Assembly: GCF_963921235.1 (NCBI RefSeq)
Contig: NC_086097.1
Location: 140,370,001-140,434,000, forward strand
DNA from: Mobula hypostoma
Taxonomy: Eukaryota
Direction: 5' to 3'
DNA: 64,000 nucleotides
Under the pieces are notes generated by a model, which was not told the origin of the DNA, made no database searches, and saw only the letters and a list, made by a program, of their open reading frames with translations. The translations under genes were made by a program, and so were the position numbers. Positions within the stretch are counted from its first letter, which is position 1. Every line of letters starts with the position of its first letter. Shown in pieces: positions 180-62,390 of the stretch.

Positions 180-1430
180 GTTGACGGGACTGGAAGACTT
201 GAGTTATTGGAGAAACTGAATAGGCTGGTATTCTTCCCTGAAGCAAAGGAGGCTAAGGGTGACTTTATGAATCATGAGGGGCATAGATAAGGCAGATGGT
301 TAAAATCCTTATCCCAGTAAATGGGAATTTAAAATTAGAAGGAATAAGTTTAAGGTGAGTGGGAAAAGATTTCAGATTCAGGTTTACTTATCCTATGTAC
401 ATCGAAACACACGGTGAAATGTATCCTTTGTGTTAACAACCAACACACCTAAGGATGTGCTGGGGGCTTAAAGGGGACTTCAAGTACAGAAGGTTGTAGG
501 TATATAAGTGTCAAGTTAGGAAAAGGGGAAGTACAACGAGATCTAGGTGTCCTTGTTCATCAGTCACTGAAAGTAAGCATGCAGGTACAGCAGGCAGTGA
601 AGAAAGCTAATGGTATGTTGGCCTTCATAACAAGGGGAGTTGAGTATAGGAGCAAAGAGGTCCTTCTGCAGTTGTACAGGGCCCTGGTGAAACCACACCT
701 GGAGTATTATGTACAGTTTTGGTCTCCAAATTTGAGGAAGGACATTCTAGCTATTGAGGGAGTGCAGCGTAGGCTCACGAGGTTAATTCCCGGGATGGCG
801 GGACTGTCATATGTTGAAAGATTGGAGCGACTGGGCTTGTATACACTGGGAATTTAGAAGGATGAGAAGGGATCTGATTGAAACGTATAAGATTATTAAG
901 GGATTGGACACGCCAGAGGCAGGAAATATGTTCCCAATGTTGGGGGAGTCCAGAACCAGAGGCCACAGTTTAAGAATAAGGGGTAGACCATTTAGAACAG
1001 AGTTGAGGAAAAACTTTTTCACACAGAGGGTTGTAGTTCTGTGGAATACTCTGCCTCAGAAGGCAGTGGAGGCAAATTCTCTGGATTCTTTCAAGAAAGA
1101 GTTAGATAGAGCTCTTAAAGATAGCGGAGTCAAGGGATATGGGGAGAAGGCAGGAAAAGGGTACTGATTGTGCATGATCAGTCATGATCACAGGGCTGAA
1201 TGGCCTACTCCTGCACCTATTGTCTATTGTATATGGAAGAAGCTGCCAGAGGAAATAGTAAACATGGGTACAATTACAACATCTAAAATACATTTTGACA
1301 GGTTCATTTTGAAAATGATGTGTGATATGCGATAAATGTAGACAAATGGGCTAGCTCAGGAATGCACGATAGCCAGCATGGATGATGTGAGCCAAATGGT
1401 TTGTTTCCATGCTGTACAACTATGACTGAA
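180..1430 (+). mobile_element. Old degenerate CR1-type LINE 3' end, interrupted by a younger CR1 (507-1229) and a short SINE-like piece (~372-467)
   Basis: Decayed CR1 ORF2 C-terminal sequence (gaggctaagggtgac..., tttaaggtgagtgggaaaagattt) resumes after 1230 (ctgccagaggaaatagta...). Confidence 0.65.
507..1229 (+). mobile_element. 5'-truncated CR1-type LINE (ORF2 C-terminus and 3' UTR)
   Basis: ORFs 579-857 and 811-1167 (VKKANGMLAFI...PHLEY.VQFWSP...RTRGHSLRI...FFTQRVV) are split by a frameshift. The 3' end reads gaatggcctactcctgcacctattgtctatt. Confidence 0.9.
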
Positions 1431-2542
1431 ATTAGAAATCACTAATTCCATTGACAAACTGGTTCTGGTACTATAATTAACTGTCTGGTAACCAGTTCCA
1501 GAATGGTAATGTGTCTTGAATTTTGTTCCCGTGGTCATGTTGAACAAAACAATTATAAAATGGAAATAGGTTGTGCAGCACAGTACGGTTGAAGGTGATG
1601 AATGAACCAACACAATTGTTAGATCTACTTCACCTCATCCTAACTAAATTCACCTGCAGCAGGTGCATTTACCAAAGAAAGCATTAGGAGTAGGTTCAAT
1701 CTTCTCACCAACATGTGTGGTGCTGTTATAGCCTTAAAATGGGTTATATTGATAACACCTCTGCCAGCTCAAAACTGCACATCCATGAGGCAACATGTGC
1801 TATCAGTAGCAATGGAACTGCACAGCATCACAATATTTAACTTCACAGCTTGGCACATCCCTCATACCCATTTGTGCATATAGTACGGGCTGCTCTGTAA
1901 ACATTCATGGCATGGGGTTTATAGTATTTTCAGTCTCTGGATAATGTCAGATCATTCTTGCACTCCAGGCTATTCTCATGTCCATAATCTACCTTTAATT
2001 TTTACCAGCAAAAATAAATCATGACTTGTTAATGTAATCTTATCATTCTGTGGAAATAAATGTTTAGAAGTCATGGTGAAGGTTTCTCACTGTATCAGGA
2101 AGAAGGGAAACCAGTACGAATTCTCTCACTCTGGATTATATACAAGATGTAGCAAATTCTGTAATAAAACTTCAGAAAGGAACTGGTATCCATGACACTT
2201 CTAGGACTAGGCTTACATAATTCATGGTAGTTGCATTTCAATTTTTTTTACTCAAATTAGAACTGCCAGCTTTTTAAAAAATTACCATCTATGTTAGTTT
2301 ATTTCTTCTTAAAATACAACATGCAGAAGTAATGAAAGCACTCAATAGCAAAATTACTCTGTTATATTGATCAAGTTTATTCACCTTCAGCAGCAGAAAG
2401 ATGCTTATTGTTATGTACCTGCTAATCCCTTACTTCAGTAACTCAGCCAACAAAGCTGTTTTAAATATGTAGGAGCATACATCAGAATAGTCTATACTGC
2501 CTCTTGAGCCTGGTTCAACATTTAGGATTTGGACCGGAACTA

Positions 2543-3997
2543 CACTCAGTAGCCATTTTATTTGGTACCTTCTGTACCTAATAAAGTGGCCACTGAGTGT
2601 ATGTTTGTGGTTTTCTGCCAATTCACCTCAAGATTCAACGAGTTTGTGTCCATAGATGCTCTTCTGCACACCACTGTTGTAATGCATAGATTACTCTCAC
2701 TACAGCATGAACCAGTCTGGCCATTCTCACCTGAACTCTCTCGCTAACAAAGTATTTTTGCCCACAGAACTGCTGCTCACAGGAATTTTTTTTTTGTTTT
2801 TTGCACCATCTCTGTAATCTCTAGAGACTGTTGTGTGTGAAAATCTCAGATCAGCTGTTTTTAAGATATTCAAACCACCCTGTCAGTCACCAACAGTTAT
2901 TCTACAGTCAAGGTCACTTAGATTACATTTCAAGTTGTCAAATTTATTGTCATTTTAACCATAAGCTGCTGGCACAGCACACAGTAAAAACAAAACATGT
3001 TCCTCCAGGACCATGGTACTACATGAAACAACACAAAACTACACTAGATTATGTGAGACAGCACAAGGCTACACTAGACTACGTAAAACAACCATAAAGT
3101 GCACATAACAGTGCAGGGCAGTACAATAATTAATAAACAAGACAAGAGGCACAGTAGAGGGCAAATTACAATACAATAATAAATGATGTAGATGTCAGTC
3201 TAGACTTTGGGTATTGAGGAGTCTGATGGCTTGGGGGAAGAAACTGTTGCACAGTCTGGTCGTGAGAGCCCGAAACCTTCGGTACCTTTTGCCAGATGGC
3301 AGGAGGGAGAAGAGTTTGTGTGAGGGGTGCGTGGGGTCCTTCATAATACTGTTAGCTTTGCGGGTGCAGCGTGTAGTGTAAGTGTCCGAAATAGCGGGAA
3401 GAGAGACCCTGATGATCTCAGCTGACCTCACTATCCGCTGCAGGGTCTTGTGATCCCAGACGGTGCAATTCCCGAACCAGGCAGTGATGCAGCTGTTCAG
3501 GATGCTCTCGATGCATCCCCTGTAGAATGTGGTGAGGATGGGGGCGGGTGGGAGATAGACTTTTCTCAGCCTTTGCAGAAAGTAGAGACGCTGCTGGGCT
3601 TTCTTTGCTATGGAGCTGGTGTTGAGGGACCAGGTGAGATTCTTCGCCAGGTGAACACCAAGAAATTTGGTGCTCTTAACGATCTCAACGGAGGAGCCGT
3701 CAATGTTCAGTGGAGAGTGGTCGCTCCATGCTCTCCTGAAGTCAACAACCATCTCTTTTGTTTTGTTCACAGAGACAGGTTGCTGGCTCTGCATCAGTCT
3801 GTTAGCCGCTGCACCTCCTCTCTGTATGCTGACTCATTGTTCTTCCCCATTCTGATGATTGCTCTGAACAACAACTGAACCTCTTGACCATGTCTGCATG
3901 GTTTTATGCATTGAGTTGCCTTCACATGATTGGCTGATTAGATATTTGCATTAACGAACAGGTGTGCAAGTATACCTACTAAAGTTGAAACTGTGCG
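2543..3997. mobile_element. Non-autonomous Tc1/mariner-like DNA transposon, interrupted by a LINE
   Basis: TA|CACTCAGTAGCCATTTTATTTGGTAC at the left end and the degenerate inverted end GTATACCTACTAAAGTTGAAACTGTGCG|TA at the right. Confidence 0.65.
2931..3839 (-). mobile_element. Rex1/Babar-type LINE 3' fragment
   Basis: ORF 3195-3794 contains NKTKEMVVDFRR...KFLGVHL...LTWS.NT...[10 protein letters not shown]...HPSHKLFSLLPSGKRYR...NSFFPQAIRLLN. The 3' tail contains aaatgacaataaa. Confidence 0.85.
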
Positions 3998-12993: not shown

Positions 12994-13266
12994 CAAATAA
13001 GAGACAATTTGCAGATGCTGGAAATCCAAGCAACTCTCACAAATGCTGGAGGAACTCAGCAGACCAGGCAGCATCTATGGAAAAAACAGTACAGTCGACG
13101 TTTTGGGCCGAGACACTTTGGCCTAATTCTGCTGCTATGTCTTATGGTCTGGTATTAAGGACTCATAAGTGCAGACGAAGGCTCTTGGCCCGAAATGCTG
13201 ACTGTACTTTTCTTTCCCCCATAGGTGCTGCCTGGCCTGCTGGGTTCCTCCAGCATTTGTGAGTTA
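12994..13266. mobile_element. Penelope-derived fold-back insert
   Basis: Inverted pseudo-LTR arms with a 13-bp TSD TGAAATTAATTGA at 12981-12993 and 13267-13279. Confidence 0.8.
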
Positions 13267-13615
13267 TGAAATTAATTGAATCGGTTGAAGACTATTTTTT
13301 TCTGATATGAGGATTACAGGAGGAAACCAAGATGGATTCTGGCTGAACAAGGCTGTGTGTGCTTCACCCTGGTCTCTAGAACATGCTTGCTGAGCCCTAT
13401 CATCATTAAAGATGGGATTCTTCTTGAAACCTCCTTTTCCTGTTAGTTATTTCATCACCCACTACCATTCATGGCAAAATAGGATAGTACTGTGGAGCTT
13501 CAACTGATTCATTAGTTTCAAGATTGCAAAGGTCTATCTAGGCTGCTGATTTTGCTAGTTAACACACAAACAGTCCTGTACTGCAGCTTCAATAGGCTGC
13601 CACTTCCTCAATTTT

Positions 13616-14690
13616 AAGATTCGAGATTATTTAATGTAATTTCCAGCAGACAAGTGTAAATGAGATGAAATAATTGTTACTCCAGATCCGATGCAGCGCA
13701 AAAAAAAACCAATAAGATAAAGAATACAATAATAATAAGAAAGTGTAATAAACATAAATACATAAGATAGCTTACATACATAGATTGATTGTATGTCCTT
13801 AAAGTGACACTAAGCCCAGGAGTGTCTGTACATAATGTAACTGACAGGAAATGATGAAGTAGTGGTGGTTGGGGGTGTGTAGGGCTGGGTTAGTGGGTGG
13901 ATCTGTTGATCAGCCTTACTGCTTGGGGTAAGTAACTGTTGTTTGTTTGTTTGTTTTTTGAGTCCGGTGGTCTTGTCATGGATGCTATGTAGCCTCCTCC
14001 CCAATGGGAGTGGAACAAACAGTCCATGAGCAGGGCGGGTGGGATCCTTAATGATGTTACTGGCCCTTTTTCTGCATCAGTCTGTATACATGTCCTTGAT
14101 GGCAGGTAAGCTGGTGCTGGTGATGCATTGGGCAGTTTTGATAAAATGTTATAGACCCTTCCTGTCTGCTGCAGTGCAGTTTCCGTACCATGCAGTTATG
14201 CTACATGTTAGGATGCTGTCTACTGTGCATCTGTAGAATGAGGTGAGTACAGATATGCAAAGTCCAACTCTCTTCAGCCTCCTCAGAAAGTGGAGGTGTT
14301 GGTGAGTTTTTCTGATTGAGTGAAATCTGTTCTGGGACCATGAGAGATTGTGCAAGATGTGCACTCTCAGGAGTTTGAAACTTCTCATGGTTTCCACTGC
14401 CGTGCTGCCAATGTAAAGAGGAGTGAGTTCTCCTGAAGTCGATAACCTTCTTCTTTGTTTTGTTGACATTGAGGAAGAGGTTATTTGCCTGGCACCAGAC
14501 TTGAAGCTCTTCCACCTCCTCTCTGTAGGCCATATCATCATTGTTGATGATGAGCCCCACCACTGTCATGTCATCCGTGAACTTGACAATGCGATTACTT
14601 AGGTGTTTAGCTGTGTAGTTATGTGTGAGCAGAGTGTAAAGCAATGGGCTCAGCACACAGCTCTGGAGAGCATCCATGTTAAGCATGATA
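13616..14690 (-). mobile_element. Rex1/Babar-type LINE fragment (RT C-terminal half)
   Basis: ORFs 14201-14686 (CVLSPLLYTLLTH...KFTDDMTVVGLI...NVNKTKK.VIDFRR) and 14149-14541. Confidence 0.85.
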
Positions 14691-16600
14691 GGGAGGGAGG
14701 AACGTTGTGCATCCTACTATCTCCAGTTGGTTAGGAAGTCTAACACACAATTCAAAAGTGGTATACCTAATACTGCTTTGAGCTTACCCCTCTACACCAG
14801 AGGAGCAGAAGTAGGTTATCCAGCCCTTTAAGCCTGCTCTTATATTCATTAAGATCATGGCTGATTTGCCTCAGTGCAACATTAAATGAGAACAGTCTGT
14901 CAAAATATATCAAATTCCATTTCTTTCTACGGATGCTACCTGACCTAATGAGTGTTTGCAGCAGTTTTGTCATTGTATTCTCTACCCAATATCCTGTATT
15001 CTCTTAATATCAACAAACATATATATGTTTTAAATTAACAGCTCTTCAGGGTAGAGAATTTCAAAGGTTCATCATCCTCTGAATGAAGAAATGTTCCCTA
15101 ATCTCTCTCCTACACAGCCTGTACACTCTTGTCCTAAACTCCCCAGCCAGGGGAGATGTCTCCCCTGCATCTGGCCTGTCCAGCTACAGTTTTATATGTT
15201 TTGACGAACAGGGTTGATTCCCTGGTTTAACATTAATTGCAGAGTGAGGGATATGCTGGACCCTCGCTCAGGGATATGTTACAAATTGTGGTGATATACT
15301 TTTCTGCTGCTATGCTGATAATTCACAGTGATACATGGAAGCTCAGTTTCAGCAGCTGGATCCGCTGACATACACTGATTTAGAACATTTGTAGTGCCAC
15401 CCAATACAGTGGAAGAGATTCTTGATGCAACTGGCATCACCTGTATAAGAACCTTGGGACCAGGTAAGCATGCCTTTGTCCCTACTCCAATTTTCTTTAA
15501 TGCACATATCCAAATAACCCTATAATATCAAAAGCACGAAATATGTCTACATTATATCCAAACTTTCTCGTTGGTACTTGGTAAACAAAGTTGCTTATGT
15601 TGGAGAAATATACATAGTAGACAGGTCATAGCTTAACAGAAATTCACAGACTGAATGGTGATTGAAATTATCCAAAAATTATTCATTATTATTGATTGCA
15701 GTGGAAAACTACTCAATATCTACAGACACAATTGTTCATCATTGACTCTGACCATTAAACTCTGATGCTGAGGTCAGACACCTGTTGACCACCATCTACT
15801 ACCTTCCTCAGCTGATGATTTAATCCTCCGTCAAGTTGTTCATCACTTGGAAGATGACTGAGCTGGCCAAGTCATGGAGACAGCAACCACCATACTAACC
15901 CTGCAGCAAATGGTGTGGGAACCGGCAGTGGAAAGATCACTTAACAATGTGCTTATAAATCTATCAGTTGAAGATGGATTGATCTTGAAAATATTGCAGT
16001 AAATAACCATTGCAAAGTCATTGTGAAGAGAAAACCACATGTTACTATTGAATTCTATTTTTGCTATTGTGCTGAACATTTGCACTCCAGAATTAGGTAT
16101 ATGCTTAGCTAATCTGCTTTAGTACATTAATAACTTTGGCATTTATTGGATATCTGAAAAACTGCCCAGAAATGCCCTAGACATAAAAAAAGACAAATTA
16201 AATGCAATCATAGTCCATCAGTCTGTTTTCAGACACAACCAGCATGGATGGCATCAGTGACAGTGCTTTCAAGCAGTAATGACTTAAGGACCAAGGCTCC
16301 TTTGTTCCAAGGGAAATAACTCCAGCCTATTACATGTCATCTCATAGTCCTCCAGCCCTGGCCCACCCTTAATCACATCTGTACCTTTTCTAGTGTATCT
16401 ACACCTTTCCTGTAACATAGTGACCAACATCTTTCACTGTTCTGTAGTTGTGGCGCAGCTGGTATTTTATATGGTACTTAGAACATGGAACAATACTGAG
16501 CAGGAACAGTGTCTTTGGCCCATAATAGTGAGGTAAACTAATTAGCTAGTAATTAAACAGCTAACTAAACTAATCCCTTCAGCCTACACAACATCTATAT

Positions 16601-17776
16601 CAGCGGTCCCCAAACACCGGGCTACAGAGCATGCGCTACCAGGCCGCAAGGAAACGATGTGATTTGGTGATATGAGTCAGCTGCACCTTTCCTCATTCCC
16701 TGTCACGGCCACTGTTGAGCCATTACGCACGCGAGGTCATTACGCGCTTGTCATCCATTTCAGCGCGGGAAGATCAACTCTTCGAGCTTGTAAATGACGG
16801 TGGGCTGAAATGTATGTTTGACATAACATCTCTGCCAGCAATCCGGATCAAAGCCAAGGCTGAATATCCTGCGATAGCCACGGAAGCACTGAAAACGTTG
16901 CTTCCATTTCCAACGTATCTCTGCAATGAATGCAACGAAAACTAAATTGCGGAATAGACTGGACATAAGGAACCCCCTTCAAGTATCGCTGTCTCTCGTC
17001 ACCCTTCGATAGGACCGTCTTGTTGCAGGAAAACAATCCCAGGGCTCCCACTGTTTCAGCGATATTGGTGTGTTGCAATGATTTTATATGTTCATACGGG
17101 GAAAATATGTGCTGCATGTTTAATATCCAAACGATACTTAAAATGTTATGATGCTATTGACTTATATAACTATATAACAATTACAGCACGGAAACAGGCC
17201 ATCTCTGCCCTTCTAGTCCGTGCTGAACGCTACTCTCACCTAGTCCCACCGACCTGCACTCAGCCCATAACCCTCCATTCCTTTCCTGTCCATATACCTA
17301 TCCAATTTTTCATTAAATGATAAAATCGAACCTGCCTCTACCACTTCTACTGGAAGTTCGTTCAACATTTACTTCAAGCTCCCCTGATAATTGACTTATC
17401 ACTATATTCATGCGAGGAAAATATGCGCAGTGTGTTTAATATTAAATTCATTAGGTAAACCCTTTGAGAAACGAAATTGAGTGCATTAGCTAATTATCAT
17501 CTGTAGTCCAGTCGTGATCAACACCCACCGCCCCCCCTCGTCCAAAAAGAATCGCCAAAAACGATTTGTGGAAAAAAAATCGTACACGCATGCGCACTGG
17601 TGCCCGTACAAGGCTTCATGGTCATTGTAGTCTTTCTCAGGGTAAACCCAGCGTATTTGACTGCTACTCTTGTCCGTTGGCAACCCCCCCACCCCCCACC
17701 CCCCCGGTCGGCCGGTACGTAAGAATATTGTCAAAATGAAACCAGTCCACAGTGCGAGAAAGGTTGGGGACCCCTG
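16601..17776 (+). mobile_element. hAT-Charlie/Buster-type internally deleted element
   Basis: TIRs are CAGCGGTCCCCAA and TTGGGGACCCCTG, with an 8-bp TSD ATCTATAT at 16593-16600 and 17777-17784. A transposase C-terminal remnant reads EDQLFELVNDGGLK...EYPAIATEALKTLLPFPTYLC. Confidence 0.9.
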
Positions 17777-17949
17777 ATCTATATCCCTCCTTTCCTTCAT
17801 AATCATGTGCCTATCTTGGTTCAATCTATTTTTGCAGTACAATCTAATAAGCTACCAGCCAAACTCGCTTAGAAAATCTCATTCAGTTGTATCCGTACTG
17901 CTGGTTTAAGAAAAGAATTTGTTCAAAGTCACATAAAATGTATATTAAT

Positions 17950-20432
17950 TAATATATAGATTGGGTGAATGAAATTGGTAAAGGTGCTGAGGATGAGGAT
18001 TTCTTGGAATGTATACGGGATAGTTTTCTGAACCAACATGTCAAGGAACCAACTAGAGAGCAGGCCATTCTGGACTGGGTATTGAGCAATGAGGAAGGGT
18101 TAGTTAGCAATCTTGTCGTGCGAGGCCCCTTGGGTAAGAGTGACCATAATATGGTGGAATTCTTCATTAAGATGGAGAGTGATATAGTTAATTCAGAAAC
18201 AAAGGTTCTGAACTTAAAGAAGGGTAACTTTGAAGGTATGAGACGTGAATTAGCTAAGATAGACTGGCAAATGATACTTAAGGGGCCAACGGTGGATATG
18301 CAATGGCAAGCATTTAAAGATCGCATGGATGAACTACAACAATTGTTCATCCCAGTTTGGCAAAAGAATAAACCAGGGAAGGTAGTGCACCCGTGGCTGA
18401 CAAGGGAAATTAGGGATAGTATCAATTCCAAAGAATAAACATACAAATTAGCCAGAAAAAGCGGCACACCTGAGGACTGGGAGAAATTCAGAGTCCAGCA
18501 GAGGAGGACAAAGGGCTTAATTAGGAAAGGGAAAAAAGATTATGAGAGAAAGCTGGCAGAGAACATAAAAACTGACTGTAAAAGCTTTTATAGATATGTA
18601 AAAAGAAAAAGATTGGTTAAGACAAATGTAGGTCCCTTACAGTCAGACTCAGGTGAATTGATCATGGAGAACAAGGACATGGCTGACCAATTGAATAACT
18701 ACTTTGGTTCTGTCTTCACTAAGGAGGACATAAATAATCTTCCAGAAATAGTTGGGGACTGAGAGTCCAGTGAGATAGAGGAACTGAGGGAAATACATGT
18801 TAGTAGGGAAGTGGTGTTAGGTAAATTGAAGGGATTGAAGGCAGATAAATCCCCAGGGCCAGATGGTCTGCATCCCAGAGTGCTTAAGGAAGTAGCCCAA
18901 GAAATAGTGGATGCGTTAGTGATAATTTTTCAAAACTCTTTAGATTCTGGATTAGTTCCTGAAGACTGGAGGGTGGCTAATGTAACCCCACTTTTTAAAA
19001 AAGGAGGGAGAGAGAAACCAGGGAATTATAGACTGGTGAGCCTGACATCAGTGGTGGGGAAAATGCTAGAGTCAGTTATCAAAGATGTGATAACAGCACA
19101 TTTGGAAAGCGGTGAAATCATCGGACAAAGTCAGCATGGATTTGTGAAAGGAAAATCATGTCTGACAAATCTCACAGAATTTTTTGAGGATGTAACTAGT
19201 AGACTGGATAGGGGAGAACCAGTGGATGTGGTATATTTGGATTTTCAAAAGGCTTTTGACAAGGTCCCACACAGGAGATTAGTGTGCAAACTTAAAGCAC
19301 ACGGTATTGGGGGTATGGTATTGATGTGGATAGAGAATTGGTTGGCAGACAGGAAGCAAAGAGTGGGAATAAACGGGACCTTCTCAGAATGGCAGGCAGT
19401 GACTAGTGGGGTACCGCAAGGCTCAGTGCTGGGACCCCAGTTGTTTACAATATATTTTAATGACTTAGACGAGGGAATTAAATGCAGCATCTCCAAGTTT
19501 GCGGATGACATGAAGCTGGGTGGCAGTGTTAGCTGTGAGAAGGATGCTAAGAGGATGCAGGGTGACTTGGATAGGTTAGGTGAGTGGGCAAATTCATGGC
19601 AGATGCAATTTAATGTGGATAAATGTGAAGTTATCCACTTTGGTGGCAAAAACAGGAAAACAGATTATTATCTGAATGGTGGCCAATTAGGAAAAGGGGA
19701 GGTGCAACGAGACCTGGGTATCATTGTACACCAGTCATTGAAAGTTGGCATGCAGGTACAGCAGGCGGTGAAAAAGGCAAATGGTATGCTGGCATTCATA
19801 GCAAGAGGATTTGAGTACAAGAGCAGGGAGGTTCTACTGCAGTTGTACAAGGCCTTGGTGAGACCACACCTGGAGTATTGTGTGCAGTTTTGGTCCTCTA
19901 ATCTGAGGAAAGACATTCTTGCCATAGAGGGGGTACAAAGAAGGTTCACCAGATTGATTCCTGGGATGGCAGGACTTTCATACGATGAAAGACTGGATCG
20001 ACTAGGCTTATACTCTCTGGAATTTAGAAGATTGAGGGGGGATCTGATTGAAACATATAAAATTCTAAAGGGATTGGACAGGCTAGATACAGGAAGATTG
20101 TTCCCGATGTTGGGGAAGTCCAGAACAAGGGGTCACAGTTTGAGGAAAAAGGGGAAGCCTTTTAGGACCAAGATGAGGAAAAACTTCTTCACACACAGAG
20201 TGGTGAATCTATGGAATTCTCTGCCACAGGAAACAGTTGAGGCCAGTTCATTGGCTATATTTAAGAGGGAGTTAGATAAGGCCCTTGTGGCTAAAGGGCT
20301 CAGGGGTATGGAGAAAAGGCAGGTATAGGGTTCTGAGTTGGATGATCAGCCATGATCGTAATGAATGGTGGTGCAGGCTCGAAGGGCCGAAAGGCCTGCT
20401 CCTGCAACTATTTTCTATGTTTCTAAGTTTCT
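17950..20432 (+). mobile_element. Young 5'-truncated CR1-type LINE (partial endonuclease plus RT)
   Basis: ORFs 17965-18438 and 18811-20328 are in one frame, with stops at 18436 and 18760. RT motifs are [21 protein letters not shown] and FADD. The tail reads tttctatgtttctaagtttcta. Confidence 0.95.
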
Positions 20433-21723: not shown

Positions 21724-24716
21724 AACATAGAAACATAGAAACATAGAAAATAGGGGCAGGAGTAGGCCATTCGGCCCTTCGAGCCTGCACCGCCATTTAT
21801 TATGATCATGGCTGATCATCCAACTCAGAACCCCGCCCTAGCCTTCCCTCCATACACCCTGACCCCTATAGCCACAAGGGCCATATCTAACTCCCTCTTA
21901 AATATAGCCAATGAACTGGCCTCAACTGTTTCCTGTGGCAGAGAATTCCACAGATTCACCACTCTCTGTGTGAAGAAGTTTTTCCTAATCTCGGTCCTAA
22001 AAGGCTTCCCCATTATCCTCAAACTGTGACCCCTCGTTCTGGACTTCCCCAACATCGGGAACAATCTTCCTGCATCTAGCCTGTCCAATCTCTTTAGGAT
22101 TTTATACGTTTCAATCAGATCCCCCCTCAATCTTCTAAATTCCAACGAGTATAAGCCTAGTTCCTCCAGTCTTTCATCATATGCAAGTCCTGCCATCCCA
22201 GGAATTAATCTGGTGAACCTTCTTTATACTCCCTCTATGGCAAGGATGTCTTTCCTCAGATTAGGGGACCAAAACTGCACACAATACTCCAGGTGTGGTC
22301 TCACCAAGGCCTTGTACAACTGCAGTAGTACCTCCCTGCTCCTGTACTCAAATCCTCTTGCTATAAATGCCAGCATACCATTCGCCTTTTTCACCGCCTG
22401 CTGTACCTGCATGCCCACTTTCAATGACTGGTGTATAATGACACCCAGGTCTCGTTGCACCTCCCCTTTTCCTAATCGGCCACCATTCAGATAATAATCT
22501 GTTTTCCTATTTCTGCCACCAAAGTGGATAACTTCACATTTATCCACATTAAATTGCATCTGCCATGAATTTGCCCACTCACCCAACCTATCCAAGTCAC
22601 CCTGCATCCTCTTAGCATCCTCCTCACAGCTAACACTGCCACCCTGCTTCATGTCATCCGCAGACTTGGAGATGCTGCATTTAATTCCCTCATCCAAGTC
22701 ATTAATATATATTGTAAACAACTGGGGTGCCAGCACTGAGCCTTGCGGTACCCCACTAGTCACCGCCTGCCATTCTGAAAAGGTCCCGTTTATTCCCACT
22801 TTTTGCTTCCTGTCTGCTAACCAATTCTCCACCCACATCAGTACCTTACCCCCAATACCGTGTGCTTTAAGTTTGCACACTAATCTCCTGTGTGGGACCT
22901 TGTCAAAAGCCTTTTGAAAATCCAAACATACCACATCCACTGGTTCTCCCCTATCCACTCTACGAGTTACATCCTCAAAAAATTCTATGAGATTCGTCAG
23001 ACATGATTTTCCTTTCACAAATCCATGCTGACTTTGTCCGATCATTTCACCGCTTTCCAAATGTGCTGTTATCGCATCCTTGATAACTGACTCCAGCAGT
23101 TTCCCCACCACCGACGTTAGGCTAACCGGTCTATAATTCCCCAGTTTCTCTCTCCCTCCTTTTTTAAAAAGTGGGGTTACATTAGCCACCCTCCAATCCT
23201 CAGGAACTAGTCCAGAATCTAACGAGTTTTGAAAAATTATCACTAATGCATCCACTATTTCTTGGGTTACTTCCTTAAGCACTCGAGGATGCAGACCATC
23301 TGGCCCTGGGGATTTATCTGCCTTCAATTCCTTCAATTTACCTAACACCACTTCTCTACTAACATGTATTTCGCTCACTTCCTCCATCTCACTGGACCCT
23401 CTGTCCCCTACTATTACTGGAAGATTATTTATGTCCTCCTTAGTGAAGACAGAACCAAAGTAATTATTCAATTGGTCTGCCATGTCCTTGCTCCCCATAA
23501 TCAATTCACCTGTTTCTGTCTGTAGGGGACCTACATTTGTCTTTACCAGGCTTTTCCTTTTTACATATCTATAAAAGCTTTTACAGTCCGTTTTTATGTT
23601 CCCTGCCAGTTTTCTCTCATAATCTTTTTTCCCCTTCCTAATTAAGCCCTTTGTCCTCCTCTGCTGAACTCTGAATTTCTCCCAGTCCTCAGGTGAGCCA
23701 CTTTCTCTGGCTAATTTGTATGCTTCTTCTTTGGAATTGATACTATCCCTAATTTCTCTTGTCAGCCACAGGTGCACTACCTTCCTTGATTTATTCTTTT
23801 GCCAAACTGGGATGAACAATTGTTGTAGTTCATCCATGCAACCTTTAAATGCTTGCCATTGCAAATCCACTGTCAATCCTTTAAGTGTCATTTGCCAGTC
23901 TATCTTAGCTAATTCACATCTCATACCTTCAAAGTTACCCCTCTTTAAGTTCAGAACCTTTGTTTCTGAATTAACTATGTCACTCTCCATCTTAATGAAG
24001 AATTCCACCATATTATGGTCACTCTTACCCAAGGGGCCTCTCACGACAAGATTGCTAATTAACCCTTCCTCATTGCTCAAAACCCAGTCCAGAATAGCCT
24101 GCTCTCTAGTTGGTTCCTCGACATGTTGGTTCAAAAAACCATCCCGCATACATTCCAAGAAATCCTCTTCCTCAGCACCTTTACCAATTTGGTTCACCCA
24201 ATCTACATGTAGATTGAAGTCACCCATTATAACTGCTGTTCCTTTATTGCACACATTTCTAATTTCCTGTTTAATACCACCTCCAACCTCACTACTACTG
24301 TTAGGTGGCCTGTACACAACTCCCACCAGCGTCTTCTGCCCTTTAGTGTTACGCAGCTCTACCCATATCGATTCCACATCTTCCCGGCTTATGTCCTTCC
24401 TTTCTATTGCGTTAATCTCTTCTTTAACCAGCAACGCCACCCCACCTCCCCTTCCTTCATGTCTATCCCTCCTGAATATTGAATATCCCTGAACGTTGAG
24501 CTCCCATCCCTGGTCACCCTGGAGCCATGTCTCTGTGATCCCAACTATATCATAATCATTAATAACAATCTGCACTTTCAATTCATCCACCTTATTACGA
24601 ATGCTCCTTGCATTGACACACAAAGCCTTCAGGCGCTCTTTTACAACTCTCTTAGCCCTTATACAATTATGTTGAAAAGTGGCCCTTTTTAATGCTTGCC
24701 CTGGATTTGCCCTGGA
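21724..24716 (-). mobile_element. Young CR1-type LINE, nearly complete ORF2 (APE endonuclease plus RT)
   Basis: The 799-aa ORF 22224-24623 (NARSIRNK...GITETWL...YRPP...GDFN...SDH...RT) continues in frame past one TAA to 21825. The tail is (tttctatg)n and the TSD TAAATCTTGA lies at 21714-21723 and 24717-24726. Confidence 0.95.
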
Positions 24717-28990: not shown

Positions 28991-29247
28991 CAGTGGTCCC
29001 AAACTTCTGGGCCGCGAAGAATATAGCAGTAGCCAGAATGCACCCAGCACATCTTTAAGAAAAAAGCTGAAATAAACAAGCTAATTGATTAGGTGCCACC
29101 CGGCACGTAAATGTCAGCCCAGATCAGAGGTGATGCAACCAGCACCTAACTAGTTAGCTTGTTTATTTCAGCTTTTTTCTTAAAGACGTGCTGGGTGCGA
29201 TCCGGCCACCACTGTATTCTTTGCAGCCTGGAGGTTGGGGACCACTG
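28991..29247. mobile_element. Palindromic hAT MITE
   Basis: TIRs CAGTGGTCCC and GGGACCACTG, inverted arms of ~100 bp, and an 8-bp TSD AATTATAA / AATTACAA. Confidence 0.85.
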
Positions 29248-34105: not shown

Positions 34106-34801
34106 ACCAGTTTCATTACTTCACTCATTGTTTTTGTCAAAATAGAATGCTGAATCCCACTTTTCCTGGATGTTGCTTTGTGCTCACTTGGGTTTAACCC
34201 AGAACTGAACATGCACCTGGTCAATCCACAACCAACACAGTCTTCCTCTAGGAAAACTACCAGTCTCCAACCTTACTTCTGGCCTAAAACATTATCATTC
34301 CAAAACATAACTTCTCAAAGAAGGACAAGTACTTTGAATAATCTAAGTTCTTAGAATACATTAACTACATTTCTGAAGTACCTCATTACAAAAGAAACAC
34401 AAGAAGTCCTGTATTAATACAAATGCAAAAAATACAAACGCTGGAAATCTGAGATAAAATGCTGGAAACATTCAGGAGGTCAGGTATACATTATAGAGAG
34501 CCTTTAATCAGAAATGGGTTATACTTTCTGAATGCAGGGAAGGAAGAATGGAAGGTCTGAAAAGGCAGAGGAGAGTGTAAACAAAAGAACTGAATGTGAA
34601 AGGATATAAATGCTAACTAGACATCGGGGTGACTCGTTGGGGCACCTTTGAGAGAAGGGTAGTGCAGTCTGATGTGACCAGAATGAATATTAAATTTTGC
34701 TGAATGCTATTGGTATCGCCTTGCTTTGGAAATTGAAGAAGAAAACCTCAGTTTATTAAAGAAGAACGACACATAGCAAGGCAAATATAGCTCCTCCTCG
34801 T

Positions 34802-35335
34802 TTAGCGAAGGACACTTTTGATGGCATCGTTTCTGGTTGATCTGCCACCCTTGTGCCTCTCGTTGTCATTCTGGAGACATGCAGTCCTTTCATCCGCTGT
34901 CTCTTCATCTCTTCTGCTGTCTATTCTTTGTCTCTGATCTTGGAGACGTGCATTTCTCTGCTTCTTTGTCTCTTCCTCTCTCCTCCTCCTGTGCCTGTTT
35001 TTGTCATTCTGGAGACATGCAGCCCTTTCATCCTCCGTCTCTTCATCTCTTCTGCTGTTTGTTGTTTGTCTCTGATCCTGGAGAAGTGCATTTCTCAGCT
35101 CCTTTGTCTCTTCGTCTCTCCTCCTTCTATGCCAGTTGTTGTCATTTTGGAGACATGCATGCCCCTCCTCCTCTGTCTCTTCTTCTCTCATCTTTTTTGT
35201 CTTGACTCTTTGATCCTGGAGTTGTGCAGCCCTAGCCTCATCCGATTCTTGTTCTCTCCCTCTCCTTGCTGCTTCCCGACGACGTTTGGCGTTATCTGTT
35301 GACCATAATGTCCCCCTTCTCTTTCCACGCGGCAT
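34802..35335 (-). CDS. Helitron-borne 177-aa ORF of six tandem 23-aa STPR-like repeats (expression unknown)
   Basis: ATG at 35335 (MPRGKRR...). Units are ESDEARAAQLQDQRVKTKKMREE / ETEEEGHACLQNDNNWHRRRRDE / ETKELRNALLQDQRQTTNSRRDE / ETEDERAACLQNDKNRHRRRREE / ETKKQRNARLQDQRQRIDSRRDE / ETADERTACLQNDNERHKGGRST. Confidence 0.55.
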   Translation of the reverse strand: MPRGKRRGTLWSTDNAKRRREAARRGREQESDEARAAQLQDQRVKTKKMREEETEEEGHACLQNDNNWHRRRRDEETKELRNALLQDQRQTTNSRRDEETEDERAACLQNDKNRHRRRREEETKKQRNARLQDQRQRIDSRRDEETADERTACLQNDNERHKGGRSTRNDAIKSVLR

Positions 35336-35375
35336 AATTAGGCTGACCATATTTTTTTTTACCCTAATGCTGGAT

Positions 35376-35934
35376 GGGGTGTATGGGGTGTCAGGGAGGG
35401 CTAGCACCTCTGGTGGGGGAACATGTCACGTCCTTTTCAAGTTGGTTAGTCCACCTTTGGTCCCCACCTGGCATTCAGCTCTCACCTGTGGCTCCCTGTG
35501 GCTGTTTGCACGCGACAGTGGCCACACCCTGGGCAACAGCTTCGACAAGCGGGCTAAACCAGGTGAGGGTAGCCAACAGGTCTCAAACCCTCGGTGAGAT
35601 AGGGAGTTGTCTATCGCTGCATGTGAAAACAGACTCCAGCGGATTGAGCAGACAAGACCAATGGAAGGTCCAATAGTCAAGAAGGCAATCTCTGCAAGCG
35701 TCATGGAATGTGTAGAGCAGGACAAGACACAGAAGATATCCTGGTTATCCACTGCGCCTAGTCCCATCTTCAGCAGTCCTGACTCTGTCTTGCCACTGGA
35801 TCCAGATGGGAATTGGGAAGAGAGGGTGAGGCAGATGCTGTGCAACTCTCCCTCACTTAAATCCAAATCACGCGCTAGTCTCGACACCATAATAATGGTG
35901 TTGAGGTTCTTATCGACGACGATGGACGAACACA
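35376..35934 (+). mobile_element. Non-autonomous retroposon (possibly RTE-related) inserted in the Helitron
   Basis: 10-bp TSD AATGCTGGAT at 35366-35375 and 35935-35944, with a short (cga)n-like 3' end. Orientation and family are inferred. Confidence 0.65.
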
Positions 35935-36669
35935 AATGCTGGATAGAAGATATGAAGCAGTAACACCAAAAACTCTAGGATGCTGATTATTCTTGATGAT
36001 GTGGTTGGCGCTCTCCTAAATGGACGTGATATAGTCACTGCTGTCCTTTGATTGCAGCAAAGGGTTTGATGGGTGTCTCGAAGTACGTCATTACAATAAG
36101 ATTTAATTATCTCTTATTGATGGGTCTCAGCTTGATCTGTCCCAAACCTGAACATGCTGATGGTGATTAGCAGAATGTGACCGCTCAAAATAAAGCTGCC
36201 CTGCCCTTTTGCTCCGGTTGGTGTCGCTGCTGTGAGCATTGAGAGTCGCTTCTGAGACTGGCTGTGCGCATGTGTCGCAGTGTCGCATCGCGGCTTCTAT
36301 CATAGCTGACATCGGCTCTCGGGTGAAAGCGGGGCTGTTGATTTTGGCGAGTGAGCAATTTTATACGAATATATAACCCTGAACTTTGCTTGCATTCTGT
36401 AAGTTAGCGCATTTTAAGTTGATTTAGCCAAAAATAGTGCCGCTGTAATGCACCGTTTGCGCTAATTGGAGGTCACAAACAGACAAGCACAGCATGAGAG
36501 TTTTAGTAGTATATAGATAGATAGGGTGAGTCCTGATTAAGGGTTTTGGCCCAAAACAATTGCTTATTCCCCTCCACAGAAGCTACCAGACTGCCAAGTT
36601 CCTCCAGCATTTTATTTGTGCTGCTTTTGGCTTCCAGCATTTGCAGAATCCCTTGTGTTTATGAACTAA

Positions 36670-37870
36670 CACAGCAGAGGAAACTGCGAGCAGTTTCAAA
36701 CTTTTTTGGAGTTCACATCTTGCACAACCTCTCATGGTCCCAGAACACATTCTCCGAGGTCAAGAAAGCTCACCAATGTCTCTACTTTCTGAGGATGCTG
36801 AAGAAAGCTGGATGATGCACATCATACTCAAGACTTTCTGCAGATGTACAGTCGAGAGCATCCTAACATGCTGCATTACTGGTGGTACGTAAACTGCACT
36901 GCAGCAGACAGGAGAGTTCTACAGCAAGTAGTTCAAAATGTCCAATACATCACCAGAACCAAACTACATCAAGAACACAAATACAGAAAGGTGCCAGAGA
37001 AAGGCTAGCAATATTATAAAGGATCCCACCCATCCACCCTGCTTATGGATTGTTTGTCCCACTCCCATCAGGAAAGAGGCTCCACAGCATCCACACCAGA
37101 ACCACTAAACTCAAAAACATTTACTCCCCCCCAAGACATTAGGCTGAAAAACACCTCCACCATTTAATCCACCCCACCACCCTTGCATCTACGTCAGCTG
37201 CTCCTCTCGGCAACCCCTACGCACCCTTTACCTCTGATGCACTGCCACTTTATGCTTGCACTCTACACTTCATACCTATACTGAGACTGTCACTGTCCTA
37301 CTGGGTTTTCATGTGCTTTGCTGCTACCTAGAAGAGTTCCTCTTGCCAAGAGTCATTTGTCACATTATTTCCTGTAAGTCACCTTGAGTGCGAATACTCT
37401 TGCACCTTGCATCACTTTACGTACATGCAATTAGTCTACGTATATAAGCTAATCTTATGGCACGTGGCCAAGTGGTTAAGGCATTTGTCTAGTGATCCGA
37501 AGGTCGCTAGTTCAAGCCTCAGCTGTGGCAGTGTGTTTGTGTCCTTGAACGAGGCACTTAACCACACATTGCTCTAGTGTCTGCGTGAGGAGTGGCGCCC
37601 CACACAGACTTCCAATCTGCGCTTTGTAAGGCATGAAAATGCCTGACGCAGGCCTCTCATGGTCTGAGTCGATATTCCCTCCCCTTACGTATATACAGTG
37701 ACACTCAAAGAGTTACTTGTACATTGTGTTTTAAAGGATTGCATTTACATTCATATCTATTGTGTATTTTATGTTTATTATGTTTTTTTTATGCAGCATC
37801 AGATCCACAGTAACAAACATTTCATTCTACTTTACACTCACGTACTGAAGAATGACAATAAACAATCTTG
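36670..37870 (+). mobile_element. Degenerate Rex1/Babar-type LINE 3' part
   Basis: FFGVHILHNLSWSQNT...KKAHQCLYFLRMLKKAG and a 3' gaatgacaataaa. Confidence 0.75.
37459..37685 (+). mobile_element. tRNA-derived SINE
   Basis: A-box-like tggccaagtgg, B-box-like agttcaagcc and CORE-like gtgtccttgaacgaggcacttaacc. Confidence 0.8.
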
Positions 37871-42172: not shown

Positions 42173-42382
42173 CTATTAATCAGCTTTACCTAAACTCTTC
42201 TATGGTCAAAGCATAAAAAGCCTCAACTGCAATGTTTCTTCCACATCAGGCATCACTTACATTGATAAGGTCATGTAAATTTTCGTCAATATAGTACAAT
42301 TAGCAAAGTGACACAGGCAGTTCAAGAAACAATGGACTAGCAGTTTTCTGAACGGACTAAGCAGTTTTCTGAACAGACTAAC

Positions 42383-42535
42383 CTGTTGATATGTTCCATC
42401 CAGTAACGTATCCAGATTACGGAGAGGTGAGGGAGTTTTGTCCTTGAAATGTGTTAAAAGTCGCCTTTGGATAGCCCTGTACTGTACAGCCCGTTCTGAA
42501 AGAAGCTCTTTATATTTCTCAGCATTTAGGCGCAG
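42383..42535 (-). CDS. BBS9: BBS9/PTHB1 coding exon (153 nt, phase 0-0)
   Basis: tatag|CTG CGC CTA...CAA CAG|gttagt translates LRLNAEKYKELLSERAVQYRAIQRRLLTHFKDKTPSPLRNLDTLLDGTYQQ, versus human LRINGEKLEELLSERAVQFRAIQRRLLARFKDKTPAPLQHLDTLLDGTYKQ. Confidence 0.95.
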
Positions 42536-51815: not shown

Positions 51816-53349
51816 CAGGTGTCCCCCGCTTTTCGAACATTTGCTTTACGAAACCTCACTGTTACAAAAGACCTACATTAGTACCCTGTTTTCGCTTTCA
51901 GGAGGTGTTTTCACTGTTACGAAAAAAAAGCAGCGCACGGGGAAAATCAGCGCACGATAAAAGGCAGTGCACGCCCCGAGCAGCCGCTCTCCCCCGGATT
52001 CGGGACTGTATTCTCGCCGGCATTGCTTAAACACGTGCCTGTGAGCAGCCGTTTGCAAGACGAGTTCCAAGGTATTGGAAAAGCCTAAAGGAGCTCGTAA
52101 GGGTGTTACACTTAGCGTAAAACTAGACATAATTAAGTGTTTCGATCGTGGTGAACAAAGTAAGGACTAACTGAGTTTGGCTTGTGGAAGCTGACAAAGA
52201 TGATGTTGAAGAGGTTTTGGCATCCCATGACCAAGAACTGATAGATGAAGAGCTGATGCAATTGGAAGAGGAAAGGATAACAATTGAAACTGAATACAGT
52301 AGCGAATGGACCGAAAGTGAAGTTGTCCAGGAACTGAATGTGAATTAACTGCGTGAGATTTTCGCTGCAATGATAAAGTACGACTTTAATTTTGAAAGGG
52401 TACGCAGGTTTAGGGGATATTTGCAGGATGGTTTGAGTCCGTACAAAGAACTGTATGATAGAAAAATGCGTGAGGCTCAGCAGTCAAGCAAGCATCCGCA
52501 TCAGCCACAGCAGACGACGAACCTCGAGCTCCGACATCGAGGCAGGCAGTCATAGGAGAAGATGAGCTGCCTGCCCTAATGGAAACAGACGACGATATGA
52601 CACCCCAGTGTCCCACCACCCCGCGATTCGCGGAGAATGCAGTGGTAGCCAGGAGGCACACAGCACATCTTTAAGAAAAAAGCCAAAATAAACATGCTAA
52701 TTAATTAGGTGCCACCCGACAAGTAATTAATTAGCATGTTTATTTCGGCTTTTTTCTTACAGATGTGCTGGATGCCTCTCGGCTACCGCTATACCCCTGC
52801 ATGCTTTGCTTTTAGGTATCTGTCAGCGGCCCGGAGGGTGAGGACCACTACACCACTTCAGCCTGCGACGACTCAGTCTAACACACCATCATCAGTGTGC
52901 TCGGCGCTGAACCAATTCCGGTAAGTGATACTACACTGTACATACATTATTTCCACTTTATATAAGCTGTATATTTTAACGTGTTATTTGGTATGATTTG
53001 GCAGCTTCATAGCTTAAAGGTTACTGTAGACTGCTTGCGCCATGTTTTTGCCGACGGCGCTTGTGTGAGATTTTCGCTACGGAGAACAGTGCAGTAATGA
53101 TTGTGGAAAAGTATTTCTACTTTATATACGTTGTGTATTTATCATATCATTCCTGCTTTTACTATATGTTACTGTTACTTTAGGTTTTATGTGTTATTTG
53201 GCATGATTTGGGAGGTTATTTTTGGGTCTGCGAACGCTCACAAATTTTTCCCATATAAATAAATGGTAATTGCTTCTGTGCTTTACGACATTTCAGCTTA
53301 CGAGCCGTTTCATAGGAACGCTCTACCTTTGGATGGCGGGGGAAACCTG
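51816..53349 (+). mobile_element. Tigger/pogo-type internally deleted DNA transposon
   Basis: TA|CAGGTGTCCCCCGC...GCGGGGGAAACCTG|TA. A CENP-B-like N-terminal remnant KPKGARKGVTLSVKLDIIKCFDRGE lies at ~52081 and an acidic remnant DDVEEVLASHDQELIDEELMQLEEE at ~52200. Confidence 0.88.
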
Positions 53350-62249: not shown

Positions 62250-62390
62250 CTGGAAAAAGAACTGCAATGTTTACTGGTGGCTTGTTTGTATCAATTGTAA
62301 TTTTATGAACAGCATTCTTACATGGTTGAACTGGTTGGCAAATTAATTTGAGAGGCAAACTAAATGTGCGCTGTACAATTCGAGGTACAC
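62250..62390 (-). CDS. BBS9: BBS9/PTHB1 coding exon (141 nt, phase 1-1)
   Basis: Minus strand reads ttgcag|GT GTA CCT CGA...TTT CCA G|gtaagc and translates (G)VPRIVQRTFSLPLKLICQPVQPCKNAVHKITIDTNKPPVNIAVLFP. This matches recalled human BBS9 GIPRVIQCKFRLPLKLICLPGQPSKTASHKITIDTNKSPVSLLSLFP. Confidence 0.95.

Follow-up and report, generated by a model that had tools for sequence, protein, structure and literature searches.

An open frame of STPR-type repeats in a non-autonomous Helitron of Mobula hypostoma, probably left over from a RepHel transposase gene

The 64,000-nucleotide stretch analysed here (hereafter the window; Mobula hypostoma, RefSeq assembly GCF_963921235.1, contig NC_086097.1, positions 140,370,001 to 140,434,000) contains a real but ordinary non-autonomous copy of a canonical Helitron (HLE1), within which a frame of 177 codons, built largely from 23-residue repeats of the STPR type, has stayed open. 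We consider it probable (roughly 0.74) that this frame derives from the N-terminal STPR repeats of a RepHel transposase gene, a remnant now decaying without selection in an old copy of an abundant 1.3-kb family. The element would thus be a clear case of a short open frame that persists in a decaying transposon.

The open frame and its RepHel relatives

As an earlier, sequence-only reading of the window had described, the frame runs without interruption and holds six 23-residue units of two alternating types (LQDQR and LQND; A-B alternation), which gives a higher-order period of 138 bp. The units start at residues 30, 53, 76, 99, 122 and 145, Tandem Repeats Finder returned periods of 69 and 138 bp with a score of 511 for the top 138-bp row, and an in-frame ATG at 35350 extends the frame to 182 residues. 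The accompanying claim that this open frame stands out among broken ones is weak, since the window contains 10 stop-to-stop frames of at least 177 codons, including frames of 521 and 835 codons in long interspersed nuclear elements (LINEs).

The assignment of the units to the STPR type was upheld, although not by the profile search that had been proposed for it. The Pfam profile PF21107 (STPRs) did match the frame (E 0.021), but with 15.6 bits it stayed below the curated cut-off of 27 bits; kinship is shown instead by profiles built from relatives. With a profile of 24 two-unit rows from five invertebrate relatives the frame scored 84.1 bits, whereas none of 500 shuffled versions exceeded -4.9 bits, and a profile of the frame together with its closest relatives matched the silkworm protein FMBP-1 (PDB 5d23, E 2.9e-4). 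Judged by sequence, the kinship with STPR repeats is firm. The top three clusters in the Atlas were also STPR clusters (score 0.87-0.88), which we take as a lead only. Like the STPR domains of FMBP-1 and ZNF821, the frame has a 23-residue period, Glu1, Ser/Thr2 and Leu10 in all six units, and predicted helices. It differs from them in its sub-threshold Pfam score, in the absence of Tyr16, in the alternation of its units and in its arginines: Arg6 is kept in 5/6 units, whereas Arg9 remains in only one, compared with 16/16 core units in the four closest relatives. For FMBP-1, contacts of Arg6 and Arg9 with phosphates have been described (PMC4856987), as has the loss of stable chromatin binding upon a single R9A substitution in repeat 2, 3 or 4 (PMC4821344).

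The predicted structure of the frame is all-helical (mean predicted local distance difference test score, pLDDT, 81.3; predicted template modelling score, pTM, 0.32), with breaks at residues 53-54 and 99-100, the starts of units 2 and 4 and hence two of the five unit junctions, and this model fits STPR descent. A Foldseek search with the model gave 0 matches, and the frame alone gave 0 matches in the PDB, 7lcc included. The tail of the frame (34805-34850) may resemble the C-terminal end of RepHel, in which case the two ends of the gene would have been joined in frame; the last 24 residues gave 0 PDB matches.

More distant relatives point to the origin of the repeats. A search of 1.84 billion representative proteins with the frame returned 10 matches, and in 5 of the 7 more distant ones (P0007-P0011) the same repeats are followed by the Cys-rich motif of the RepHel N-terminus. 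Residues 142-384 of P0011 align in one stretch to residues 21-274 of the Helraiser transposase (7lcc_A, E 6.1e-15), which together with these five proteins bears out the earlier statement that STPR-type repeats can lie N-terminal to RepHel. The N-termini of HLE1 RepHel proteins (Helraiser 7lcc, GBP33268.1, CAH2098232.1, UYV83769.1, KAK6012893.1 and P0009) resemble the Mobula frame in their 23-residue units. The basic MP(R/P/S) start is shared with four of the five RepHel relatives, and the A/B alternation with P0007, P0009 and P0011. Since P0009 has both the same MPR start and the same alternation, the 138-bp period is inherited rather than new. The Mobula element differs from these relatives in lacking the Cys-rich motif, Rep and helicase, and the frame is identical to the five proteins at only 34-38/92 positions. 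At its other end the repeat block stops abruptly, with unit 6 breaking off near 34850 in a manner that resembles a deletion junction. The HELIANO study (PMC11417382) reports STPRs almost exclusively in HLE1.

Searches beyond this set added little. Among 8000 scored candidates of 311-2000 residues, the search for a full-length parent gave 3 matches, all snake gene models, which is weak evidence on its existence. Metagenome contigs yielded no family member (0/302 stretches, and 1/542 in a second set, this being a distant RepHel fragment, L001), nor did viral contigs (0/4, 0/29 and 0/63). In prokaryote genomes the single match (1/172; 43% over 53 residues) was taken as compositional. P0013, a G-protein-coupled receptor model with a repeat tail (26/92 identical positions), was set aside as unrelated.

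The Helitron copy and its family

Both claimed termini were found on the minus strand. The left terminus reads A followed by TCTATCTATATA, with the element beginning at 36521, and the right terminus reads GATGTCTAG followed by T, with CTAG at 34620-34617. These are the 5' TC and 3' CTRR ends by which, together with insertion between A and T, HLE1 is defined (PMC11417382). The flanking letters, and steps in read depth in the bins that contain both ends, indicate that the element inserted between A and T and produced no target duplication. What remains of the claimed 3' hairpin is 19 nt long and stops 11 nt short of the 3' end, matching the geometry given for Helraiser (PMC4778049). Its stem is damaged, with 5/7 pairs left, and folding does not single it out (z-score 0.40; 125/200 shuffled sequences folded equally well). 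Features and their coordinates are collected in Table 1.

Table 1. Features of the Helitron copy and its surroundings, in positions of the window
Feature	Positions	Strand	Remarks
Non-autonomous canonical Helitron (HLE1) copy	34617..36521	-	TC end preceded by A and CTAG end followed by T; depth jump inside
Helitron 5' part: left terminus and non-coding leader, without a long frame	35945..36521	-	Median depth ratio 2,909 in run X1
Nested 559-bp high-copy repeat, SINE-like (short interspersed nuclear element), particular to this Helitron copy	35376..35934	.	10-bp duplication, insert-free joints
Open frame of 177 residues	34802..35335	-	Starts with the basic MPRGKRR; six STPR-type units follow, then a short tail and TAA
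Six units of 69 bp (23 residues), A-B alternation, 138-bp period	34835..35248	-	Position 9 is Q, C, L, C, R, C
AATAAA, possible poly(A) signal (putative)	34752..34757	-	45 nt past the stop codon of the frame
Damaged 3' hairpin, 19 nt	34628..34646	-	5/7 stem pairs; ends 11 nt before the CTAG end; read by eye
BBS9 (PTHB1) exon, about residues 655-705 of 887	42382..42533	-	PF23338, E 2.5e-20; PDB 6vbu_9, E 5.6e-21; splice sites read
Earlier BBS9 exon, residues 518-565	62250..62390	-	PF23337, E 1e-10; PDB 6xt9_I, E 2.4e-14

The element has the ends of a Helitron and none of its enzymes, which upholds its identification as non-autonomous. A tblastn search of the whole window with 14 retrieved proteins matched only the repeat block, and none of the 130 window frames of at least 85 residues matched a Helitron or PIF1 family; the Rep HUH domain and PIF1-type helicase of an autonomous Helitron are thus absent from the window, as had been claimed, and no further copy of the element was found within its 64 kb. 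Comparable elements are known from Anolis, where PMC3014272 describes non-autonomous Helitron families that are all internal deletions of 550-2,000 bp with up to more than 1,000 copies. Helitron-1N1_AC and Helitron-2N1-5_AC resemble the Mobula element as internal-deletion derivatives of 0.55-2 kb with TC/CTRR ends and insertion between A and T (PMC3014272 and PMC11417382). The Mobula family differs from them, by the descriptions in PMC3014272, in keeping six STPR units in an N-terminal frame that looks intact.

The copy measures 1905 bp with the nested repeat, and 1905 - 569 = 1336 bp without it. The nested repeat (G+C content 53%) is flanked by a 10-bp target duplication, AATGCTGGAT, at 35366-35375 and 35935-35944, lies 40 bp upstream of the ATG and brings 6 upstream ATGs on the strand of the frame, between leader and frame. 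Scans for tRNA and Rfam families gave no match to it. Its depth ratio is about 13,000-19,000, and its depth is very high in three organisms. Joints that skip it, near 35358 to 35935, occurred in 4/4 runs, so that the insert is particular to this copy and the earlier estimate of a family of about 1.3 kb holds once it is subtracted.

The abundance of the family was assessed from the contigs of 4 of the 24 listed runs, aligned to positions 34250-36850 at 80% likeness; the resulting depth ratios give an order of magnitude, not a copy number. In organism A (run X1) the flanks and both junctions were matched with 0 differences, and the summed depth was 16.6 on unique flank against about 45,000-70,000 in most bins of the element. 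The median ratio of element to unique flank was about 2,800 for A, 2,000-2,400 for B and 1,000 for C. A ratio of about 1,000-2,900 in 3/3 genomic-looking runs marks a dispersed multi-copy element and suggests that its copies number, to an order of magnitude, in the thousands. In X1 the bins of the open frame had ratios of 1,148-3,557, which makes the repeat block a regular component of the family, and joints of 69 and 138 bp among the family contigs show that the number of STPR units varies between copies. Bin 36251-36337 had an approximately 20-fold lower depth in all four runs (2,401 in A), which implies that this copy is unlike most of the family there.

Organism B has the same insertion, with one contig spanning the 3' junction at 9 differences in 429 bases. 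A flank contig of organism C stops aligning at 34613, 3 bases before the junction, and perhaps represents an empty site; as no joint crosses the element it was not used for dating. In run X15, whose RNA nature is a guess, family sequence extends along the element and the unique flank bins are uncovered, but its contigs give neither level nor strand and are uninformative on expression. Two joints in X15, 35375 to 36005 and 36031 to 36198, have a depth of about 1,910 and apparently lie on one contig, which may be an abundant transcript that contains a subfamily copy with a deletion. The second joint is also present in three other runs at few-copy depth and has no GT-AG ends, which rules out splicing as its source.

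Decay, selection and rival explanations

If the frame descends from a RepHel gene, an internal deletion of an autonomous HLE1 would have taken out its zinc-finger-like, Rep and helicase regions, so that the repeat block came to adjoin, near 34850, the terminal 200-250 bp. This founder would have kept both ends and been copied in trans by the RepHel of its parent, and because it was cut with an open frame each new copy would have begun open. The present copy would have inserted between A and T, in what is likely an intron of BBS9, after which the nested repeat would have landed 40 bp upstream of the ATG and mostly G/C-to-A/T changes would have accumulated. That the frame is still open would be due to chance, for which the T-poor coding strand was favourable.

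The pattern of change in this copy is consistent with such decay. In X1, 155 places of the 2,601-bp stretch (which includes the insert and flanking repeats) differ in at least 25% of the depth; 78 of them have A/T in the window against G/C in the reads, and 32 are reverse transitions. The codons at position 9 of the units are CAA, TGT, CTT, TGT, CGT and TGT, of which CAA and TGT are the products expected from CpG decay of an arginine codon. With Arg9 gone from five units, stable DNA binding by any product of the frame would be unlikely. Comparison of units 3+4 with 5+6 gave similar proportions of nonsynonymous and synonymous differences (pN 0.177, pS 0.162; unit 6 includes the likely junction), as did unit 3 against unit 5 (pN 0.109, pS 0.072). 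Thymine makes up 57 of the 531 coding bases, and the simulated chance that no stop arises is 0.20-0.40 at 5-9% divergence. Indels carried by at least 25% of the X1 depth number 0 in the frame and one in the whole element, so indels look rare.

Several points pull the other way. The simulated chance of an open frame drops to 0.002-0.17 if indels occur at 5-15% of the rate of substitutions, unit 2 against unit 4 gives pN 0.12 and pS 0.41, and three of the four majority differences in the frame are synonymous (among the best-supported 40 of 208 rows). Glu1 and Leu10 are retained in every unit and Arg6 in five of them. Each of the three B units has Cys at position 9, matched in alignment by a Cys of the degenerate final unit of P0002, a contig protein; to go by this alignment, the Cys may be a family trait older than this copy and not a product of its decay; the repeats of Helraiser, aligned through 7lcc, also depart from the Arg9 pattern. 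The putative AATAAA shortly after the stop codon would suit a working gene. The HELIANO study (PMC11417382) lists STPRs among 17 domains that are encoded in frames separate from RepHel, and, as the protein searches gave no autonomous parent, the proposed deletion point is a deduction.

That listing is an argument for the idea that the parent carried the frame apart from RepHel, as a complete accessory gene or first exon that was inherited whole and is now decaying. The stop codon and AATAAA after the repeats agree with it, as does the lack of a match between the snake repeat region and proteins of 640-2000 residues (0/2347 candidates, weak evidence). In most of the distant matches, however, the Cys-rich motif of RepHel follows directly on the repeats, the alignment of P0011 to Helraiser forms one stretch and unit 6 ends as at a deletion junction, all of which makes an accessory gene distinctly unlikely. 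We also think it unlikely that selection on the family maintains the frame, with a small STPR protein from intact copies binding the Helitron ends and helping or blocking the parent transposase while this copy is dead; a mini-protein under selection in a non-autonomous Helitron would be a novelty and is unsupported here, although for the founder or for copies elsewhere such a role keeps a low probability. The depth of the repeat block is as high as that of the ends, no majority frameshift is listed in the frame, its differences are mostly synonymous as given above, it has its own ATG, stop and AATAAA, and the model is all-helical with breaks at unit starts. Yet a founder cut from a working gene would yield open frames without selection, and a trans-acting repressor would not be expected to favour the copy that encodes it. 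According to PMC4778049 the N-terminal region of Helraiser is required for DNA binding, a result obtained with 489 residues including the zinc-finger-like motif that the Mobula element lacks, and Arg9 is lost from five of the six Mobula units.

Co-option of this very copy by the host, for instance by turning it into a small gene or an alternative terminal exon of BBS9, seems very improbable. The copy lies on the BBS9 strand and is likely intronic, AG acceptor-like sites precede the ATG and AATAAA follows the stop, and the insertion is also present in organism B; against this, key residues are lost, the mutations are of the decay type, the nested repeat interrupts the leader, and sharing by two organisms 2% apart speaks of age, not of function. 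For this copy, the proposal in the sequence-only reading of a dispersed stand-alone DNA-binding mini-protein is therefore unsupported, in view of the lost Arg9, the Pfam score below the cut-off, the nested repeat that splits leader from frame and the decay-type mutations. The further suggestion that the frame is raw material for domestication finds support in snakes, in the form of intact fused repeats, but not at this locus.

Snake gene models and the surroundings of the element

The closest named matches of the frame are snake gene models: XP_013920868.1 (Thamnophis), XP_058029732.1 and XP_058029734.1 (Ahaetulla, two isoforms) and KAK9405686.1 (Crotalus). P0002 groups with them by sequence, and these four models and P0002 make up P0002-P0006. 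Over four units, members of this group are identical to the Mobula frame at 54-61/92 positions, compared with 26-41/92 for nine other proteins, and to one another at 75-84/92; the similarity between P0002 and the Mobula element continues upstream of the ATG. The snake models share the first four units with the Mobula frame and, except for the Crotalus model, the same start. They differ from it in their intact Arg9 and in a shared non-Helitron segment, present in two copies in the Crotalus model, to which the repeats are fused in all three genera. All are gene predictions, and two bear the name 'RNA-binding protein 25-like'. Against PF21107 the snake relatives score 14.3-22 bits, also below the cut-off of 27. 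The shared segment has no convincing Pfam family and no named Atlas family, and it may resemble the fronts of reptile SCAN/zinc-finger genes.

The repeats at the front of RepHel can be regarded as a ready-made DNA-binding module, which appears intact and fused in the snake models of three genera. If these models are real and under purifying selection, they would be a candidate for a Helitron-derived transcription factor, and the closeness of their repeats to the Mobula element would, if it reflects transfer, add a case of Helitron movement between distant vertebrates. Horizontal transfer followed by domestication in snakes is, from the sequence similarities, a tentative reading not far short of even odds, and the transfer part depends on a non-reptile host. 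We regard as improbable the joint scenario in which a single Helitron lineage moved between snakes and a fish-like host, with its STPR arm serving both as a selected frame for a small regulator of Helitron ends here and as a domesticated module fused to a host gene in advanced snakes; within it, the selected mini-protein is the unlikely half. A precedent for such movement is HeligloriaB, for which PMC2997563 reports horizontal movement among bat, anole, lamprey and bug, fragments in snakes and spread as non-autonomous copies. By description, the possible likeness to the Mobula family is a non-autonomous spread across distant hosts. In literature on STPR and Helitrons, Helitron transfer and Helitron domestication in snakes, a scope that leaves most subscription papers outside, the snake genes are undescribed among the matches listed, and a review of snake repeats names Helitrons only in its references (PMC8303610).

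The window also contains two BBS9 exons (Table 1). The Helitron likely sits downstream of the exon at 42382-42533, on the same strand, in a long BBS9 intron: that exon stops at about residue 705 of 887, and of 41 candidates in the 42 kb downstream, judged by eye, none was recognised as a later exon.

Among the other repeats of the window are two copies of a CR1-like LINE at 17947-20305 and 21857-24215, which form a 2.36-kb inverted pair (94% complementary, 1.55 kb apart) and hold the open frames of 521 and 835 codons; in sharks and rays, CR1/L2-type LINEs make up 22-34% according to PMC13343379. Two related short inverted-repeat elements at 28991-29247 and 52629-52793, with arms of about 80-106 nt, resemble miniature inverted-repeat transposable elements.

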